A stretch of 64,000 nt of DNA, taken from an uncultured Acidobacteriota bacterium (GTDB lineage: Bacteria > Actinomycetota > Acidimicrobiia > Spongiisociales > ZC4RG35). The position numbers and the translations under genes are program-made. Below the pieces are notes generated by a model. The model had not been told where the DNA came from, made no database searches, and saw nothing but the letters and a program-made list of their open reading frames with translations. The stretch spans positions 352,001 through 416,000 of the forward strand of contig CAWHEU010000022.1 in assembly GCA_963828465.1 (NCBI GenBank), written 5' to 3'. Of the stretch, positions 16,010 through 25,917 are shown piece by piece. The stretch's first letter is position 1; every line of letters starts with the position of its first letter.

Positions 16010-17260
16010 GTGTTCGTCGACCGGGTCCGTGTCAACCTCCGCGCCGGCAACGGCGGCGCGGGGGTTGTGTCGTTTGTGAGGGCCAAGGGGAAGCCCAAGG
16101 GCAAGCCGATCGGGGGAAACGGCGGTCCGGGCGGGTCGGTGTACCTCAGGGCCGACCCTTCGGTGGCCACACTGCTCCGCTACCAGCGAAACCCGCATTA
16201 CGCAGCGGGTCACGGCACCCACGGCCAGGGTGATGTTCGACACGGCAAATCCGGTGAGGCTCTGTACCTTCCGGTGCCGCTTGGAACCGTCGTGATCGAC
16301 GGTGAAGGCACAATGGTCGCCGACCTGGTCGAAGAGGGTCAAGAGATCGAAATTGTCAAGGGAGGGCGGGGTGGCCGGGGCAACGCCGCCTTCGTCAACC
16401 CCTCCAACCGGGCTCCGGGCGTTGCCGAGCAAGGGGAGTACGGGCGGTCGGAATGGCTCACCCTCGAGCTGAAACTCCTCGCCGACGCGGCCCTCATCGG
16501 ATTCCCTAACGCCGGGAAATCCACATTCATCTCCAAGGTGTCGGCCGCCAAGCCCAAGATCGCCGACTATCCCTTCACGACCCTCGTGCCGAACTTGGGT
16601 GTAGTGAGCTTCGACGGGCGGGAGTTCGTCCTGGCCGACATCCCGGGCCTGATCGAGGGTGCAGCCTCTGGGAAGGGTCTCGGTCACGAGTTCCTCCGTC
16701 ACGTCGAGCGGGCACGGGTCCTCGTCATACTTCTCGATCCGTCGCCGATGCAAGAACGTTCGCCGGAGGAGCAGTTGCAGATCTTGAGGCGTGAGATCGC
16801 CGACTATTCCTCCGAGATCGCGGCAAGGCCGAGCATTGTGCTCCTCAACAAGTCGGACCTAGCTGACGTCACCGACCTCGCGACGGCGCTCGATGCGACG
16901 CCGGTCTCAGCAATCAGCGGGGAGGGCATTCGAGAGTCGCTGCATGCCATCGCCGACCTGGTCGACGAAGCGGAGCGGGTCGCGCCGCTTCGTAAGGGAT
17001 ATGTCCTTCACCGTCCGTTGGGCCCGACATTCACCGTGCGTAGGGAAGAGGGTGGCTGGCGCATCGAGGGCCTCGCCGCCGAGCGAGCGGTTGCGTTCGC
17101 CGACCTGACCCTGCCAGAAGCGGCCGACATGGCAGCCTGGCGCCTCTCTCGACTCGGTGTGGATCAGGCGCTGTTGGATGCAGGGGCGATCGAGGGCGAC
17201 GAGGTAAGGATCGGAGAGATCTCCTTCGAATTCACCCCGGAGCGGGACGAGGAGGAATAG
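16010..17260 (+). CDS. obg: GTPase Obg/CgtA
   Basis: Gly-rich Obg fold, GFPNAGKS, DIPGLIEGA, NKSD, OCT C-terminal domain. Confidence 0.97.
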   Translation: MFVDRVRVNLRAGNGGAGVVSFVRAKGKPKGKPIGGNGGPGGSVYLRADPSVATLLRYQRNPHYAAGHGTHGQGDVRHGKSGEALYLPVPLGTVVIDGEGTMVADLVEEGQEIEIVKGGRGGRGNAAFVNPSNRAPGVAEQGEYGRSEWLTLELKLLADAALIGFPNAGKSTFISKVSAAKPKIADYPFTTLVPNLGVVSFDGREFVLADIPGLIEGAASGKGLGHEFLRHVERARVLVILLDPSPMQERSPEEQLQILRREIADYSSEIAARPSIVLLNKSDLADVTDLATALDATPVSAISGEGIRESLHAIADLVDEAERVAPLRKGYVLHRPLGPTFTVRREEGGWRIEGLAAERAVAFADLTLPEAADMAAWRLSRLGVDQALLDAGAIEGDEVRIGEISFEFTPERDEEE

Positions 17261-17270
17261 CCATGCGGGT

Positions 17271-17597
17271 TCAACCGCGAGCGGCACACTCGACGCAACG
17301 TGAGGCGGCGGGCAGAGCGTCCAGCCGAGCAACTCCGATGTCGTTTCCGCACACGTCACACTTCCCGTAGGTGCCGTTGTCGATCTTGACCAAAGCCCGG
17401 TCGATGTCCTCGATGGTGTGCGTGATGGATCGCGCGGTAGCTGTGGTGCTAAGTCGCTCCACCGCCTCCGTGGTGCCGTCCCCGACCCGTTTCCCGAACG
17501 AGACGGCGGCACCGGTCGTCGGCGGCGCGGTCAGTCTGCCCAATTCGACCTCGAGCTCGGCTTTGCGATCGACGAGGGTCTGACGGAGCGCGTCCAT
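17271..17597 (-). CDS. TraR/DksA C4-type zinc finger protein
   Basis: Coiled coil plus YGKCDVCG..RLDALP..CVEC. Confidence 0.88.
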   Translation of the reverse strand: MDALRQTLVDRKAELEVELGRLTAPPTTGAAVSFGKRVGDGTTEAVERLSTTATARSITHTIEDIDRALVKIDNGTYGKCDVCGNDIGVARLDALPAASRCVECAARG

Positions 17598-17653: not shown

Positions 17654-18517
17654 ATGAGTTTTGAGACCCCGCGAGCGGTCGCTGAAGCGTTGCGCTCGGT
17701 CGATTATCTGCCCGACGACCGCATAGCGCAGGTCGTCTTTCTCGCTGACCGACTCGACAAGCCAATCCTTGTCGAGGGACCAGCAGGGGTCGGGAAGACA
17801 GAGCTCGCCAAGTCGCTGGCCAGGGTCACCGGACGCGACCTGATCAGGCTCCAGTGCTACGAGGGCCTCGACGAGGCCAAGGCGCTCTACGAGTGGAACT
17901 ACAAGAAGCAGTTGCTCAGAATCCAGGCCGACGTCGACCACGACTGGGAGGACATCGAGCAGGACATCTTCTCGGAGGATTTCCTTCTCACCCGCCCACT
18001 TCTCGAGGCTATTCGCTCCGAGAATCCCGTCGTGCTGCTCATCGACGAGGTGGACCGGGTCGAGGTCGAGACCGAGGCATTGCTCCTCGAGATCCTCTCC
18101 GATTTCCAGGTGTCGATCCCCGAGTTGGGGACGATGGAGGCACGAACCCAGCCGATGGTGGTTCTCACGTCCAACAACACCCGGGAGTTGAGCGAGGCGC
18201 TGAAGCGCCGCTGCCTCTTCCTCCACATCGACTACCCCGATGCTCAGAGGGAGCAGGAGATTCTCGCCGCTCGGGTTCCCGGGTTGTCCGAGCATCTGGC
18301 CGTACAGGTGGCCAAAGTGGCCCGGTCGATCCGAAGCCTCGACCTGAAGAAGGCGCCCTCCGTCTCTGAGACCATCGACTGGGCGCGGACCCTCCTCGCC
18401 CTCTCCATCGAGGATGTCGACGAGGCGATCCTGGGCGACACGCTGCACGTCCTCCTCAAGTACCAGGCCGACATCGAGAAGGCGGCCAAGGAGCTGACGT
18501 CGAGCCCTCCATCGTGA
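17654..18517 (+). CDS. MoxR-family AAA+ ATPase (CoxD-like)
   Basis: EGPAGVGKT, RLQCYEGLD, LIDEVD, LKRRC. Confidence 0.92.
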   Translation: MSFETPRAVAEALRSVDYLPDDRIAQVVFLADRLDKPILVEGPAGVGKTELAKSLARVTGRDLIRLQCYEGLDEAKALYEWNYKKQLLRIQADVDHDWEDIEQDIFSEDFLLTRPLLEAIRSENPVVLLIDEVDRVEVETEALLLEILSDFQVSIPELGTMEARTQPMVVLTSNNTRELSEALKRRCLFLHIDYPDAQREQEILAARVPGLSEHLAVQVAKVARSIRSLDLKKAPSVSETIDWARTLLALSIEDVDEAILGDTLHVLLKYQADIEKAAKELTSSPPS

Positions 18518-18518
18518 C

Positions 18519-19946
18519 GTGCTCGGGATAATCACCGGTTTCATCGACGAGCTGAGGGCGGCCGGCGTCCCTGTGTCGATGGTGGAGGCCATCGACGGGA
18601 TGCGGGCAGTCGAGGCCGTTGAGATCGGCGACAGGATCGCCCTTCGCGAGACCTTGCGGGCCACCTTGATCAAGAACCTGCGTCATGAGCGCGCCTTCGA
18701 TACTGCGTTCGACGTCTATTTCTCGATGGTTCCCCAGTCCCTTTCCGAGCCAGGGGATTCCGGGGAGTCCGATTCTCAGCCGCATGCCGACCGGTCCGAT
18801 GCCCTTGAGCCGCCCCCGTTCGATATCGACGGGCTCCTCGATTCGCTCCTCGAGGCGCTGGCCGGTCTCGAGGAGGAGGCGATCCGGCGTGGCGCCCGTA
18901 CCGCGGTAGACGAGTTGGCCGGCATGGAGCCGGGGCGGCCCGTCGGCGGGACCTACTACCTGTACCGAACGCTGCGCAGGCTTGATCTGGCGGACCTCGA
19001 GGAGAGATTGATCTCTGCCCTCACCGACGATCAGGACCTGTCCGATTTCGAAAGGCGTCTCCTCCGCGAGGAGGTGGAGGCCAGGATCGAGCGTCTGCGG
19101 CAGGAAATCGAGGAAGAGATTCGACGACGACTCGTGGCCGATCGCGGTCGTGATGCGGTGGCGCGCACCCTGCGGCGCCCTCTCATCGAGGATGTCGACC
19201 TGATGCACGCCACGACCAGCGACCTCCACGAAATGGAGGACGCCATCGGGCCCCTTACACGGAAGCTGGCAGCGCGGTTGGCCCGACGCCGTCGGATGCG
19301 GGCAGGTCGGCTCGATTTCCGTCGCACCGTGCGAAAGTCGTTGGCAACCGGCGGCGTCCCGGCAGACCCACAGTTCCGCCATCCACGGCCTCACCGGCCG
19401 GAGGTCTGGCTCCTCTGCGACATCAGCGGGTCCATGGCGACATTCTCCCGTTTCACCCTCCAGTTCACCCACGCCATGTCGACCCACTTCTCCAAGCTGC
19501 GGTCTTTCGCTTTCGTCGACACCATCGATGAAGTCAGTGACTTCTTCGGCCCGGGGGTGGATTTCGGGTCGGCATTGCGGCGGGTTACTACCGAGGCCGA
19601 GGTGGTGTGGCTGGATGGGCACTCCGATTACGGCAACTCCCTGGAGACGTTTCACACCCGGTACGGCCGTCAGCTCACCCCCCGGACGACCGTGATCATC
19701 ACAGGGGACGCCCGTAACAATTACCGGCCGCCACGGGATGGGGTGCTCGGCGACATCGCAGAGGCGTCACGTGCCTTGATCTGGCTCAACCCCGAACCTG
19801 AGGCATACTGGGACACCGGCGATTCGGCGATGTCTCACTATGCCGGCCATTGCACCTCGGTCCATGAGGTGCGGACGCTGCGCCAGCTCGAGCAATTCAT
19901 CGAGGATTTGACCCTCCCCGGGCCAAGGCTCCTCCAGAATGTCTAA
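18519..19946 (+). CDS. VWA domain protein (CoxE-like)
   Basis: MIDAS DISGSM, GDARNNY, WLNPEP; paired with AAA ATPase. Confidence 0.9.
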   Translation: MLGIITGFIDELRAAGVPVSMVEAIDGMRAVEAVEIGDRIALRETLRATLIKNLRHERAFDTAFDVYFSMVPQSLSEPGDSGESDSQPHADRSDALEPPPFDIDGLLDSLLEALAGLEEEAIRRGARTAVDELAGMEPGRPVGGTYYLYRTLRRLDLADLEERLISALTDDQDLSDFERRLLREEVEARIERLRQEIEEEIRRRLVADRGRDAVARTLRRPLIEDVDLMHATTSDLHEMEDAIGPLTRKLAARLARRRRMRAGRLDFRRTVRKSLATGGVPADPQFRHPRPHRPEVWLLCDISGSMATFSRFTLQFTHAMSTHFSKLRSFAFVDTIDEVSDFFGPGVDFGSALRRVTTEAEVVWLDGHSDYGNSLETFHTRYGRQLTPRTTVIITGDARNNYRPPRDGVLGDIAEASRALIWLNPEPEAYWDTGDSAMSHYAGHCTSVHEVRTLRQLEQFIEDLTLPGPRLLQNV

Positions 19947-20402: not shown

Positions 20403-21425
20403 CTAAGCCGGCTCCTTCTCCAAGACCTCAGCTAGACGCTCGGCGAGGTCCACCACCCGGTTGGAGTATCCCCACTCGTTGTCGTACCACGACATAACTT
20501 TGACCAGGTTCCCGCCGAGCACCTGAGTGCCGCCGGCATCGAAGATCGACGAGTGCGGGTTCCCGATGATGTCGGTCGAGACGATCGGATCCTCCACATA
20601 TTCCAGTATCCCGGCCATCGGGCCCTCCGCCGCGGCCCTGACCGCTGCGTTCACCTCTTCGACTGTCACATCACGGTCCAGCTCGACCACCAGGTCGACC
20701 GTCGAACCGTCGGGCACAGGCACCCGCATCGCCATGCCGTCGAGTTTCCCGGCGAGATTGGGGATGACCTCCCCGATGGCAGCCGCGGCACCTGTGCTCG
20801 TCGGGATGATGTTCTCGGTCGCCGCCCGGCTCCGGCGTAGGTCCTGGTGCGGGACGTCGGCCAGCACCTGGTCGTTGGTGTAGGCGTGCACCGTCGTCAT
20901 CACGCCCTTGCGGATGCCGAAATTGTCGTCCAGCACCTTGGCCAGAGGCGCCAGTGAGTTCGTGGTGCACGAGGCGTTGGAGACGATGATGTCGTCGGAG
21001 TCGAGTTGGTCATCGTTGACCCCAAGGACGACTGTCTCATCCACCTTGTCCTTCGACGGGACGGTGAGAATGACTCGCTTGGCCCCGGCATCGACATGCT
21101 TCTGGAGCGTTGCGCGGTCCCTGAAGACGCCAGTCGATTCGATGACGATGTCGACATCGAGGTCCTGCCACGGCAACGAGGATGGGTCGCGCTCCATGAG
21201 CATCTTGATCTCATGCTCTCCGACCCTCATCACACCCCCGTTCACAGTGACTTCTTCCTCGAACCGTCCCATCACCGAGTCGTACTCGAGGAGGTAGGCG
21301 AGAATGTCGTCATCGGAAAGGTCGTTGATGGCGACGACTTTGAGATCCGAATTCGGCCGTGAAGCGATGATGCGAAATACCGCCCGCCCGATCCGCCCGA
21401 AGCCGTTGATTGCGACGTTGGCCAT
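20403..21425 (-). CDS. gap: Type I glyceraldehyde-3-phosphate dehydrogenase
   Basis: INGFGRIGR, SNASCTTN, TTVHAYT, WYDNEWGYSNR. Confidence 0.96.
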   Translation of the reverse strand: MANVAINGFGRIGRAVFRIIASRPNSDLKVVAINDLSDDDILAYLLEYDSVMGRFEEEVTVNGGVMRVGEHEIKMLMERDPSSLPWQDLDVDIVIESTGVFRDRATLQKHVDAGAKRVILTVPSKDKVDETVVLGVNDDQLDSDDIIVSNASCTTNSLAPLAKVLDDNFGIRKGVMTTVHAYTNDQVLADVPHQDLRRSRAATENIIPTSTGAAAAIGEVIPNLAGKLDGMAMRVPVPDGSTVDLVVELDRDVTVEEVNAAVRAAAEGPMAGILEYVEDPIVSTDIIGNPHSSIFDAGGTQVLGGNLVKVMSWYDNEWGYSNRVVDLAERLAEVLEKEPA

Positions 21426-21427
21426 GT

Positions 21428-22447
21428 TCATTCTCCGTTGAGGTAGGTGGCGATCATCCCGGTGACCTCGACCACCCGGTTCGAGTAGCCCCAGCCGTTG
21501 TTGAACCAGGTAATGGTCTTCACCAGAGTTCCCCCTGTCACCATGGTGGCCAGACTGTCATAGACACCGGAGTGGGAGATCGATCTCACGTCTGAGGAAA
21601 CAATCGGATCTGCGACATATTCGATGATTCCCTGGTACTTGCTCTCGCACGCCGCCCTGACGAGGCCATTGACCTCTTCCTTGTCCGTAGCGCGCTCGAC
21701 GTCGACCACCATGTCCACGGTCGAGCCGTCGACTACGGGAACATTGAGGGCGACCACTGCCAGCTTGTCCTCGAGCTCGGGCAGGACCTGGGTGATGATC
21801 TCGGCAGAATTCGTGTCGGCGGGGATGATGTTCTCCCCAGCAGCCCGGGAAGTCCGGTAGGAGTCGGTCGGTACATCTGCGAGCCGTCCTGCGTTGGACA
21901 TCGCCTTGACCACCGTCATGTAGGCGCGCTTGACCCCGAGCTCCTCGTTGATGGTCTTCAATATCGGTGCGGCGGCGTTCGATGTGTTGGAGCCGAGCGC
22001 CACCTGGTCGACGTCCGAAGTGAGGACGTCGTCGTTTATCCCACGAAGAAGCAGAGGGATCTCACCGGGGATCTCAGGGCTCGAGGTCAAGACGACTTTC
22101 TTCGCCCCAGCCTTGAGATGCTGCTCCAGGGCTTCCTTGGTCCGATAGCGGCTGGTGGTCTCGAGCACTACATCGACGCCGAGCTCCCCCCAGTCGGCAT
22201 CGCCCGGCTCACGTGCGTTCAGCCAGGCGACATTCCTGTCGCCGTAAGACAATGTGCCGTCGGCGTAGGACACAGGTGCCGGAAAGCGGCCGTAGATGGA
22301 GTCGTACTTGAGGAGGTAGGTGAGCGCCTCGGGATCGGCGATGTCGCTGATCGCCACGATGTCGAGGTCGGCCCGATTGTGGAGGAGGCGCATCACGTTC
22401 CGCCCGATACGGCCGAAGCCCATGAGCCCTATCCGGGTTGTCATCAT
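21428..22447 (-). CDS. GAPDH paralogue lacking catalytic Cys and His
   Basis: GFGRIGR, YLLKYDSIYG, WGYSNR retained; active site reads GSNTSN and TVVKAM. Confidence 0.9.
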   Translation of the reverse strand: MMTTRIGLMGFGRIGRNVMRLLHNRADLDIVAISDIADPEALTYLLKYDSIYGRFPAPVSYADGTLSYGDRNVAWLNAREPGDADWGELGVDVVLETTSRYRTKEALEQHLKAGAKKVVLTSSPEIPGEIPLLLRGINDDVLTSDVDQVALGSNTSNAAAPILKTINEELGVKRAYMTVVKAMSNAGRLADVPTDSYRTSRAAGENIIPADTNSAEIITQVLPELEDKLAVVALNVPVVDGSTVDMVVDVERATDKEEVNGLVRAACESKYQGIIEYVADPIVSSDVRSISHSGVYDSLATMVTGGTLVKTITWFNNGWGYSNRVVEVTGMIATYLNGE

Positions 22448-22539
22448 CGATCGATTCCTTTCTGCGGAACTGAAACTAGTGGTCATACCCCTTGGCGACC
22501 CAAACCGGCGCCGGTAGGTTCGGCTTCGGGAGGGTTGAG

Positions 22540-23134
22540 ATGCTGTTGGCTTTCGCCCTGAGCGCGGTGTGCCTGATGGCACCGGTCGATGGCCCGGTTG
22601 TCGCCGAATATGCGCCAGTGGGGTCTTATGGCGGCCACTGGGGCATCGACTATGCAGCCGGCTGTGGGTTCACAGGTGCGGGCACCGGCCTCGGGCCGGA
22701 TCACTTTCGCCGGCTCGGTAGCAGGGATGAGATCGGTGACCATCGAACCGGTCCCCGGGTTCAAGGTGTCGTTGAGCTATCTGTCGGAGATCGAGCAGTC
22801 GTCGGGAGCCAGCGTCGGTCGGGGTGAGGTGATCGGAAGATCCGGATCACCCCATGGCGTGAATGGGGTCCATCTGTCGACCAGAATCGACGGCGAGTAC
22901 GTCGACCCTGGGACCCAACTGGGATGTCGTGACACCGACATCACCCGAGCGCTCCGGCTGGTGACGCCTCCGGGACCGTATGCTCGCCAACGTGCGCACC
23001 GGGATCCTGGGCGGGACGTTCGACCCGATCCATATCGCCCATCTCCACGCCGGCGAGACGGCATTGTTCGCAGCCGACCTCGACCGGGTGTTGTTCATGC
23101 CCGCTGGCGACCCATGGCAAAAAGGAGCACGTGA
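22540..23134 (+). CDS. M23-family peptidase (frameshift near 22660)
   Basis: HWGIDY in frame 1; VRAPASGRITFAG, VHLSTR..YVDP in frame 2. Confidence 0.75.
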
Positions 23135-24533: not shown

Positions 24534-25917
24534 TCACTGTTCCGGTGGGATGTTCTGGTTGAGCCGGAACAGGTTGTCGGGGTCGTAATGGGCCTTGACA
24601 CGACGGAGCCGGTCCCAGGTTCCGCCCGGGTAGGCAGCCCGCACACGGTCCTGTCCCTCATCGGCGAGGAAGCCGACGTACCCGCTGAGGTCGCCGTTGC
24701 TTAGGGACTTGGCGAAGTCGGACACCCACGTCTCGCGCCGCTGGCGGTCGTCGGGGCCTTCGTAGAACGAAGCGACATTGATCATCATTTTCCGATCGCG
24801 GTGAGCGAACGCTGTGGCGTCGTTGGGGACACGAGCCATGGCTCCGCCCAGGACCCGGAGTTGGGCTACCCGCATTGGTGCATCCGAGTCTTCGAGATAA
24901 CCGAGGATGGTCTCCGCGGTTGCCGAATCGAAGGTGTCGGCCCACAACGTCCGGGCTACTGCCAGCGGTCGGTACTCCTCGTCTTCCGGTCCGTAGATCT
25001 CCGGATAGGGCATCTCTTGGACCATGTCGGCGATCGGCTGAGCGAGCCGGCGGAACCGATCCATCACCTTCTGCCCTTCGTCGATGTCGCCGCACCACGC
25101 CACCAGGGCCATGATCACGAGGCTGCCGTGGATCTCCTCTGGGACGAATGGCAGGGGCGGGCAGCTCATGACGTTGGCGATGGTCGACAGCTCTTCGGGA
25201 GCCTGCTCCGCCTCGGCGATGAACCCGACGATGGTGTCGACCGTGGCAGGGAGAACCATCATCCCGCCGACGATCCGGTCCAGCTCCTGTAGTCGAAGCT
25301 TGGAATTTGGTGGCGACCCCGAAATTGCCTCCACCTCCCCTGATGGCCCAGAAGAGGTCGGGATGAGACTCCTCGTCGGCGCGCACCACCTCGCCGTCCG
25401 CCGTGACCACCTCGGCGGCAAGTAGCGAGTCGATGGTCATGCCGTGCTTTCGCACGAGGAACCCGATTCCGCCTCCGAGGGTGATTCCGCCCAGTCCCAC
25501 CGATCCTGTGTCGCCGAGCCCGGTGGCTAGCCCGACGGCGTTGGTCTCGTTGCTGTATTCGGCGGCGGTGAGACCGGAGTCGGCCCATGCGGTCCTGGAC
25601 TCGATGTCGATCTCGAGGGACTTGAGGCTCCTCAGATCGATCACGATCCCGCCATCGGTGGTGCTGTGTCCGGCGGCGCTGTGCCCGCCACTGCGGATGG
25701 CGAGCTCGACACCGGTCTCCCGCGCGATGGTCAGGACCGTCGCTATGTCGCTGGCGTCTGCCACTTGGGCGACCGCGGCGGGGCGGACACCGTCGTAGAC
25801 GGGTATGAAGAGTCGGTGGGCGTCGTCGTATCCCTCGTCCTCGGGCGTGAAAACCTGTCCTGTCAGCGCTTGGCGGAGACGTTCGATGTCGATATTGGGT
25901 CTGGCTGCGATGGACAT
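24534..25917 (-). CDS. FAD-binding oxidoreductase, BBE-like (frameshift near 25300)
   Basis: RSGGHS, LFWAIRGGGGNFG, C-terminal YDPDNLFRLNQNI. Confidence 0.88.

Follow-up and report, generated by a model that had tools for sequence, protein, structure and literature searches.

A GAPDH-like protein without the catalytic residues, encoded directly upstream of canonical GAPDH in Acidimicrobiia and other bacteria, is a candidate non-catalytic GAPDH subunit

Glyceraldehyde-3-phosphate dehydrogenase (GAPDH) ranks among the enzymes studied most, and its bacterial form is regarded as a homotetramer whose subunits are identical and active. Here we describe a pair of GAPDH-type genes from an uncultured bacterium of the class Acidimicrobiia (assembly GCA_963828465.1). 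The pair lies in a stretch of 64,000 nucleotides of contig CAWHEU010000022.1 (positions 352,001 to 416,000) that was analysed as a whole and is called the window below. Both genes are full length and stand head to tail on the minus strand, with the divergent copy, gapX, upstream and the canonical gap downstream (Table 1). Their products, GapX and GapA (P0002), are 44% identical and align end to end. No other GAPDH genes were found in the source genome (3.07 Mb, 92% complete), and P0002 is the sole canonical GAPDH found there. An earlier sequence-only reading had described the upstream copy as a 339-residue protein that is free of frameshifts and retains its nicotinamide adenine dinucleotide (NAD)-binding and interface motifs, and the open reading frames (ORFs) and their translation bear this out.

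The gapX frame is open as far as a GTG at 22582, but ATG 22447 is the likely start, because homologues are almost all 339-342 residues long and a Shine-Dalgarno-like AAAGGA lies 8 nt ahead of it. Two starts are possible for gap. The ATG at 21425-21423 begins 2 nt past the gapX stop, which is the spacing given in the sequence-only reading; with the alternative, ATG 21431, the genes would overlap by 4 nt. A GGAG inside the 3' end of gapX lies 7 nt ahead of the first of these and 1 nt ahead of the second, and so fits ATG 21425 better.

GapX differs from canonical GAPDH at the catalytic cysteine and histidine, Cys149 and His176, and at both arginines of the substrate-phosphate site (Table 1). These Cys and His replacements, and the change of DNE to NNG (WYDNE to WFNNG), had been picked out in the sequence-only reading and are present as described. 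The alignment adds the changes at the two arginines, Gly209-Ala210 to Asn-Ser and Asp181 to Ala; it also shows Glu314 to Gly and Thr179 to Ser, while Ser148, Thr150 and Thr208 of the anion sites are kept. We take Thr179, Arg195, Arg231, Ser148, Thr150, Thr208 and Gly209 to be the GAPDH sites for substrate phosphate and inorganic phosphate. In the downstream gap, SCTTN, VHAYTNDQ, AMRVPV and WYDNEWGYS are all intact. GapX has neither the nucleophile nor the base, and both anion sites are lost, so the conclusion that it cannot carry out GAPDH chemistry is well supported by the alignment, and the earlier proposal of a catalytically dead copy is upheld as regards the GAPDH reaction.

Table 1. Features of the gapX-gap locus (window coordinates)
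Feature	Position	Strand	Basis
gapX, GAPDH-like paralogue without catalytic Cys/His (P0001; 339 aa)	21428..22447, stop included	-	ORF, translation, Pfam, AlphaFold2
gap, canonical type I GAPDH (P0002; 342 or 340 aa)	20403..21431	-	ORF, TIGR01534; alternative ATG 21425
gapX start ATG and stop TGA	ATG 22447; TGA 21430-21428	-	sequence
gap stop	20405-20403	-	sequence
ATGA, gapX stop overlapping possible gap start	21428..21431	-	sequence
GGAG, Shine-Dalgarno-like, inside gapX 3' end	21433..21436	-	motif match only
AAAGGA, Shine-Dalgarno-like, 8 nt ahead of gapX start	22456..22461	-	motif match only
Asn154 (AAC) at catalytic Cys149 position (SCTTN to SNTSN)	21986..21988	-	alignment
Lys181 (AAG) at catalytic His176 position (VHA to VKA)	21905..21907	-	alignment
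Thr199 (ACT) at substrate-phosphate Arg195 position	21851..21853	-	alignment
Asn235 (AAT) at substrate-phosphate Arg231 position	21743..21745	-	alignment

Both proteins contain the two Pfam GAPDH domains (in GapX, Gp_dh_N at 1.7e-29 and Gp_dh_C at 2.6e-42), and no added domain, DNA-binding or other, was found in GapX by Pfam. The NAD-binding residues are conserved, namely GFGRIGR, Asp32 (Asp35 in window numbering) and Asn313 (Asn317), as are the motifs SRAAGENIIP, VPVVDGSTVD and WGYSNR. AlphaFold2 gives GapX a confident GAPDH fold (predicted local distance difference test, pLDDT, 89.2; predicted template modelling score, pTM, 0.88), in which the S-loop (185-206) is the sole low-confidence stretch. 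Foldseek matches this model to solved GAPDHs at template modelling (TM) scores of 0.89-0.90, and a sequence comparison with the PDB has the Thermotoga maritima enzyme 1HDG as its top match (E 1e-77). A search of the ESM Atlas returned generic GAPDH clusters only. GapX therefore folds like GAPDH on these models and, judging from the residues kept, probably retains NAD(H) binding.

With the type I equivalog model TIGR01534 (cut-off 367.2 bits), P0002 scores 452.5 and GapX 290.5. GapX shares with type I GAPDH (GapA; EC 1.2.1.12; for example 1HDG and the Geobacillus stearothermophilus enzyme 1GD1) the two domains, the fold, 36-44% identity, the NAD residues and the interface strands; it lacks Cys149, His176, Arg195, Arg231, Gly209 and Glu314, and it is never the sole GAPDH gene, always standing upstream of a canonical one. 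In score, catalytic dyad and anion sites it thus departs from type I phosphorylating GAPDH, and in domains, fold and NAD residues it agrees with it. It is also distant from two other specialised paralogues of the superfamily, Epd (TIGR01532; 248.6 against a cut-off of 530.55) and the ArsJ-associated GAPDH (NF033735; 264.2 against 450), both of which keep the catalytic Cys.

The pair recurs in Acidimicrobiia, where it was read from sequence in 37 genomes, the window's included. Thirty of these, among 201 genomes sampled from the class, belong to the order of the window: all 21 sampled genomes of the window's own family, five of eight in a family that we label f2, two of six in f4, and members of f7 and f8. 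Two further f2 genomes have the genes in tandem by coordinates. The remaining seven are genomes of about 1 Mb from another family, in which 41 of 47 genomes give two matches. In a further family, f14, second GAPDH copies are not in tandem and some are fragmentary. The 120 closest homologues of GapX listed in a search of 5.8 billion proteins are 70-96% identical to it and are named by their sources as Acidimicrobiia proteins from metagenome-assembled genomes (MAGs), and GSNTSN occurs in 117 of the 122 stored proteins scanned (GapX, P0002 and these 120). When a profile of the clade was run over 401 Actinomycetota genomes, only six, all Acidimicrobiia, scored at least 504 bits; partnered gap genes followed at 394-417 bits and everything else at 386 or less, a tally that includes 13 genomes flagged as unpublished, which gave lower scores only. 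An apparent N-terminal extension of gapX in three f2 relatives (L030, L032 and L033), where the frames are open for 330-410 codons upstream, holds no Pfam domain and was set aside as spurious, being typical of high-GC DNA.

Within these 37 upstream copies the remodelled active site is itself conserved. Position 149 is Asn in every copy; Ser148-Asn149-Thr150 is invariant, Thr208 and Ser210 are nearly so, and Asn209 is found in most. At position 176, 22 copies have His and 15 have Lys, so that, on this alignment, the replacement of His by Lys is a late change of the window's sub-lineage. Of the two losses pointed out in the sequence-only reading, that of the Cys thus holds across these Acidimicrobiia copies and that of the His does not. 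An earlier motif survey by regular expression had given Val, Leu or Asp at 176 in some relatives; these were false matches, and the alignment gives His or Lys only. Position 195 is freer (T 19, L 7, Q 5, S 3, K 2, A 1).

The gene evolves faster than its partner and is nonetheless constrained. Over the same 17 genome pairs, the ratio of nonsynonymous to synonymous substitution rates (dN/dS, by the NG86 method) is 0.05-0.22 for gapX and 0.012-0.14 for gap, ratios that are rough because dS frequently exceeds 1. The mean depth of the clade comes to 0.92 for gapX and 0.38 for gap, so that gapX evolves about 2.5 times faster, and 89 columns are at least 90% conserved in gapX as against 164 in gap. 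The check on relaxed selection that had been suggested with the sequence-only reading thus finds no relaxed decay: on these ratios, gapX is kept by purifying selection and is not decaying. Taken with the lost active site, this makes it well supported from the sequences that GapX is dead for GAPDH yet functional.

GapX is not confined to one class. We took the best 150 representatives from a library of 1.84 billion proteins, of which 139 sequences, counting GapX and P0002, were checked. The canonical triplet of Cys, His and Arg231 is present in 109 of them, and those closest to GapX mostly lack the Cys; these closest representatives carry the plain public name of type I GAPDH and come from Acidobacteriota, Planctomycetota and other sources. 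We then used one of them (P0134) to scan species-representative genomes, which gave 80 loci, assigned to phyla by record title, where MAG labels may be wrong: 22 in Acidobacteriota, 12 in Fibrobacterota, nine in Eiseniibacteriota, five in Krumholzibacteriota, four in Pseudomonadota, one each in Latescibacterota, Gemmatimonadota, Fidelibacterota and Bdellovibrionota, and 24 under titles that name no phylum. Two of the 80 are cut by the end of a contig; in each of the remaining 78, the divergent gene stands immediately upstream of a canonical gap that has the same orientation. With Acidimicrobiia and the other phyla taken together, all 115 of the 115 complete loci, across at least ten phyla, have gapX immediately upstream of such a gap, and no orphan gapX was seen among the loci examined.

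The two genes are also tightly joined. A possible start of gap shares 4 nt with the stop of gapX in 59 of the 115 pairs, 1 nt in 18 and some other length in seven; it follows the stop at 0-15 nt in 19 pairs, at 16-60 nt in nine and at more than 60 nt in three. The start thus overlaps the stop or lies within 15 nt beyond it in 103 pairs.

Phylogeny separates the two genes deeply. In a quick IQ-TREE search under LG+C20 with posterior mean site frequencies (75 rows), one branch with a Shimodaira-Hasegawa-like approximate likelihood ratio (SH-aLRT) support of 100 splits 42 upstream rows from 33 canonical ones, and the window's GapX falls in the 12-row Acidimicrobiia clade starred in that tree. A FastTree of 270 rows agrees with this split. 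The phylogenetic check proposed earlier therefore returns one old upstream family: on these trees gapX is a member of a separate paralogue family that extends over many phyla, and not a recent local duplicate. In the canonical subtree, rooted by gapX, the partnered gap genes form the nearest, short-branched grade, which fits an old tandem duplication of this partnered subtype, the position of the root not being established.

The residues that mark the family are those of the phosphate sites. In 126 family members Arg231 is never found (Asn in 110), nor is Glu314 (Gly in 121) or Gly209 (Trp in 74, Asn in 34); in the canonical comparison set Arg231 and Glu314 are present in 144 of 144. The NAD residues are kept in nearly all members, with G7, G9 and G12 in 126, Asp32 in 123 and Asn313 in 122. 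Position 149 varies widely (S 39, N 37, C 36, A 5, I 3, T 2, V 2, P 1, G 1), and by parsimony the FastTree topology requires at least 14 changes there. The hallmark of the family, as read from this alignment, is thus the loss of Arg231, Glu314 and Gly209 and not the loss of the Cys, which 36 members retain, and the window's GapX fits it with Asn231, Gly314 and Asn209. On the same evidence Cys149 has been lost repeatedly in a family that stayed under selection and next to gap, and is dispensable to it. The early loss of the phosphate-site residues and the repeated loss of the Cys together argue for a selected role that at no time required GAPDH catalysis.

The partnered gap genes carry a signature of their own. 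Thr123, Val124 and Met235 (P0002 numbering; LTVP...AMRVP) occur together in 107 of 113 partnered genes (the window, L005-L040 and L058-L137) and in one of 93 GAPDH representatives used as controls, which may or may not have a partner. An unpartnered Acidimicrobiia gap (L041) carries them too, and from these alignments the three residues may mark a GAPDH subfamily rather than co-adaptation.

Two results bear on whether GapX assembles with GapA. In a complex prediction, the pair reached an interaction score from aligned errors (ipSAE) of 0.63, and the best of three controls 0.00; the mark used is reached by 58 of 80 solved complexes and by two of 110 mismatched pairs. Contacts agreed between runs at 97% or more, partner pLDDT was at least 92, and the predicted contact is the large beta-sheet interface of GAPDH dimers. 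Of the 42 positions in the predicted interface, 23 reach at least 90% conservation in the 37 copies of gapX, compared with 66 of the 297 outside it and 29 of 124 in the remainder of the catalytic domain; the corresponding counts for gap are 25 of 41 and 140 of 301. Neither columns nor relatives are independent in these counts. Judged on the modelled interface, GapX appears to have kept its subunit contacts as its substrate sites drifted, a pattern that favours an oligomer but does not say which one.

The reading that we favour, at a probability of roughly 0.55, is of GapX as a non-catalytic subunit that binds NAD(H) and joins GapA in heterotetramers. Its basis is the coupling of the genes, the conservation of the interface and the complex prediction. 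The products of gapX and gap would be made together in roughly equal amounts, and would associate through the conserved beta-sheet (P-axis type) interface into mixed tetramers. The dead subunits might then set the stability, the cooperativity or the NAD+/NADH response of the active ones. A broader version extends this across at least ten phyla of mostly uncultured bacteria, among them Acidimicrobiia, Acidobacteriota, Fibrobacterota, Eiseniibacteriota and Krumholzibacteriota. Here glycolytic GAPDH, instead of being the textbook homotetramer, would consist obligately of GapA and an ancient dead GapX that binds NAD(H) and couples activity to the NAD+/NADH state, the Cys of GapX having become dispensable once the heteromer existed and having then been lost many times independently. 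We hold this version tentatively, at somewhat less than even odds.

Several points weigh against this reading or limit its support. The complex prediction cannot separate a heteromer from two homotetramers, and, because solved GAPDH tetramers exist, its pass may reflect likeness to them and not binding by this pair. In favour of the reading, three RNA libraries from soil or rhizosphere contain contigs that run across the gapX/gap junction (X15, 21085-21616; X16, 21376-21511; X17, 21279-21515), and those of X15 also cover most of gapX; this is compatible with co-transcription, but the contigs come from relatives at 90-97% identity to the window, DNA can be present in an RNA library, and a contig over two genes is no proof of one transcript. 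No real gapX-gap fusion was found among 91 longer homologues (E <= 1e-30; 16 inspected), which is weak evidence. Of those inspected, only two metagenome proteins, P0305 (677 aa) and P0308 (703 aa), hold a gapX-type unit together with a canonical one; they are singletons and probably artefacts of assembly or gene calling eased by the overlapping frames: in the full sequence of P0305 the last third of the gapX unit reads as frameshifted and Arg-rich, and P0308 was judged from motif positions only. The strong conservation of the active-site loop in Acidimicrobiia, with only His or Lys at 176, is not obviously needed by a purely structural subunit and points to ligand binding or some chemistry there. 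Finally, the 36 family members with Cys149 also keep His176, and often Arg195 (within L095-L137, in Acidobacteriota and Eiseniibacteriota), without Arg231, Glu314 or Gly209. From these sequences, the family may have begun, or may partly persist, as an enzyme.

The pair is flanked by a convergent response-regulator gene and by a divergent group of M23 peptidase, nadD and rsfS. A gap-pgk-tpi operon was considered and rejected as its context: pgk of the same genome is on another contig (G000 contig C11:24367-25443, L138), and the flanks of ten loci from other phyla have no common neighbour. That absence of a shared neighbour in the ten loci is by ORF layout, domains not having been searched there. 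Between 20200 and 22800, a scan found no promoter-like sites, and its two terminator-like sites are in line with the 1.1 expected by chance and so are not usable.

Further along the window, two overlapping ORFs on the minus strand (24658-25917 and 24534-25421, together 24534-25917) jointly resemble one flavin adenine dinucleotide (FAD)-linked oxidase. In the first, the N-terminal half is sensible and an Arg-rich tail comes after it; in the second, the C-terminal half is sensible. The ORF list suggests a frameshift, by assembly error or in a broken gene, near 25290-25420. On the other side (17654-19946, plus strand) a MoxR-type AAA ATPase (17654-18517) is followed 1 nt on by a CoxE-like protein with a von Willebrand factor A (VWA) domain (18519-19946). 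A DksA/TraR zinc-finger protein (17271-17597) is encoded on the opposite strand just before the ATPase gene, adjoining obg (16010-17260).

The strongest competitor to a heterotetrameric partner is a stand-alone NAD-dependent enzyme that works without a thiol, for example by hydride transfer on a non-phosphorylated or differently charged substrate, and that is linked to gap by pathway only. Ligand binding at the conserved, remodelled loop of the active site is counted with it. The family-wide retention of the NAD residues, the conserved S-N-T-S-N and T-N-S loops in Acidimicrobiia with their constant His or Lys, and the Cys and His still present in 36 of 126 members are all in its favour, and the phosphate sites look remodelled, not randomised, with Asn231 in 110 of 126 and Trp or Asn at 209 in 108. 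We nevertheless consider it unlikely. The nine residues seen at position 149, and the at least 14 changes among them, misfit a conserved catalytic role, and the differing flanks of the ten loci provide no consistent pathway neighbour. Overlap with gap is typical of subunits of one complex, though not exclusive to them.

GapX might instead act outside the GapA tetramer as a sensor of NAD(H) or a regulator, perhaps as a tetramer of its own that binds a protein, an RNA or a metabolite and so tunes glycolytic flux. Canonical GAPDHs have non-catalytic binding roles, a kept NAD site beside lost substrate sites would suit a sensor, and the conserved interface would serve a homotetramer equally well. 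Adjacency to gap, mostly with overlap, in all 115 complete loci is tighter than the usual loose regulatory link, however, and GapX has no added domain, DNA-binding or other, with which to act. The signature of the partnered gap fits a dedicated partner, though shared ancestry could explain it. We rate such a role as rather less probable still than a separate enzyme.

That gapX is a decaying, functionless duplicate of gap is scarcely credible, for, despite its lost catalytic residues and its faster evolution (depth and conserved columns as above), its intact frame, its low dN/dS, the Asn149 of all 37 Acidimicrobiia copies, the confident predicted fold, its retention in genomes of about 1 Mb and in many phyla and its strict synteny across them refute this as far as sequence analysis can.

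A heterotetramer of GapX and GapA would have partial precedents. The nearest among heteromeric GAPDHs is the A2B2 enzyme of chloroplasts, likewise built of two paralogous subunits, structures of which (2PKQ, 7Q57) are among the matches found for GapX. In plants, GapA and GapB assemble into mixed tetramers with the regulation seated in one subunit; GapB, itself catalytically active, regulates through a C-terminal extension with two cysteines. GapX has neither that extension nor the catalytic residues, and the origins of the two are separate. Closer in principle are the prozymes, which are likewise dead paralogues under purifying selection beside an active enzyme. The prozyme of trypanosome S-adenosylmethionine decarboxylase (AdoMetDC; PMC6221367) and plant PDX1.2 (PMC6829848) are dead paralogues that act by hetero-oligomerization with the active enzyme. 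These examples are eukaryotic and experimentally shown, whereas the GapX complex is predicted only, its genes are bacterial and translationally coupled, and its effect could be activation, inhibition or sensing.

The sequence-only reading had suggested that the system could be undescribed. No description of a bacterial Cys-less GAPDH partner was found in the full-text literature, with subscription journals and supplements outside the search, and passages of a review from 2025 on the superfamilies of aldehyde dehydrogenase and GAPDH make no mention of one (PMC12041015). It thus appears that this textbook enzyme probably has an undescribed non-catalytic partner.

The public annotation of gapX genes as "type I glyceraldehyde-3-phosphate dehydrogenase" has a practical consequence, in that metabolic reconstructions count an active second GAPDH where these genes occur. 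The members of the family that retain Cys149 would serve best for probing its ancestral function. If the heteromeric reading is true, the pair would be a clean natural example of a heteromer that lets one subunit lose its active site, with Cys149 kept in some lineages and replaced in others. Many bacteria, including abundant soil Acidimicrobiia and their streamlined relatives of about 1 Mb, would then use a different form of a core glycolytic enzyme.

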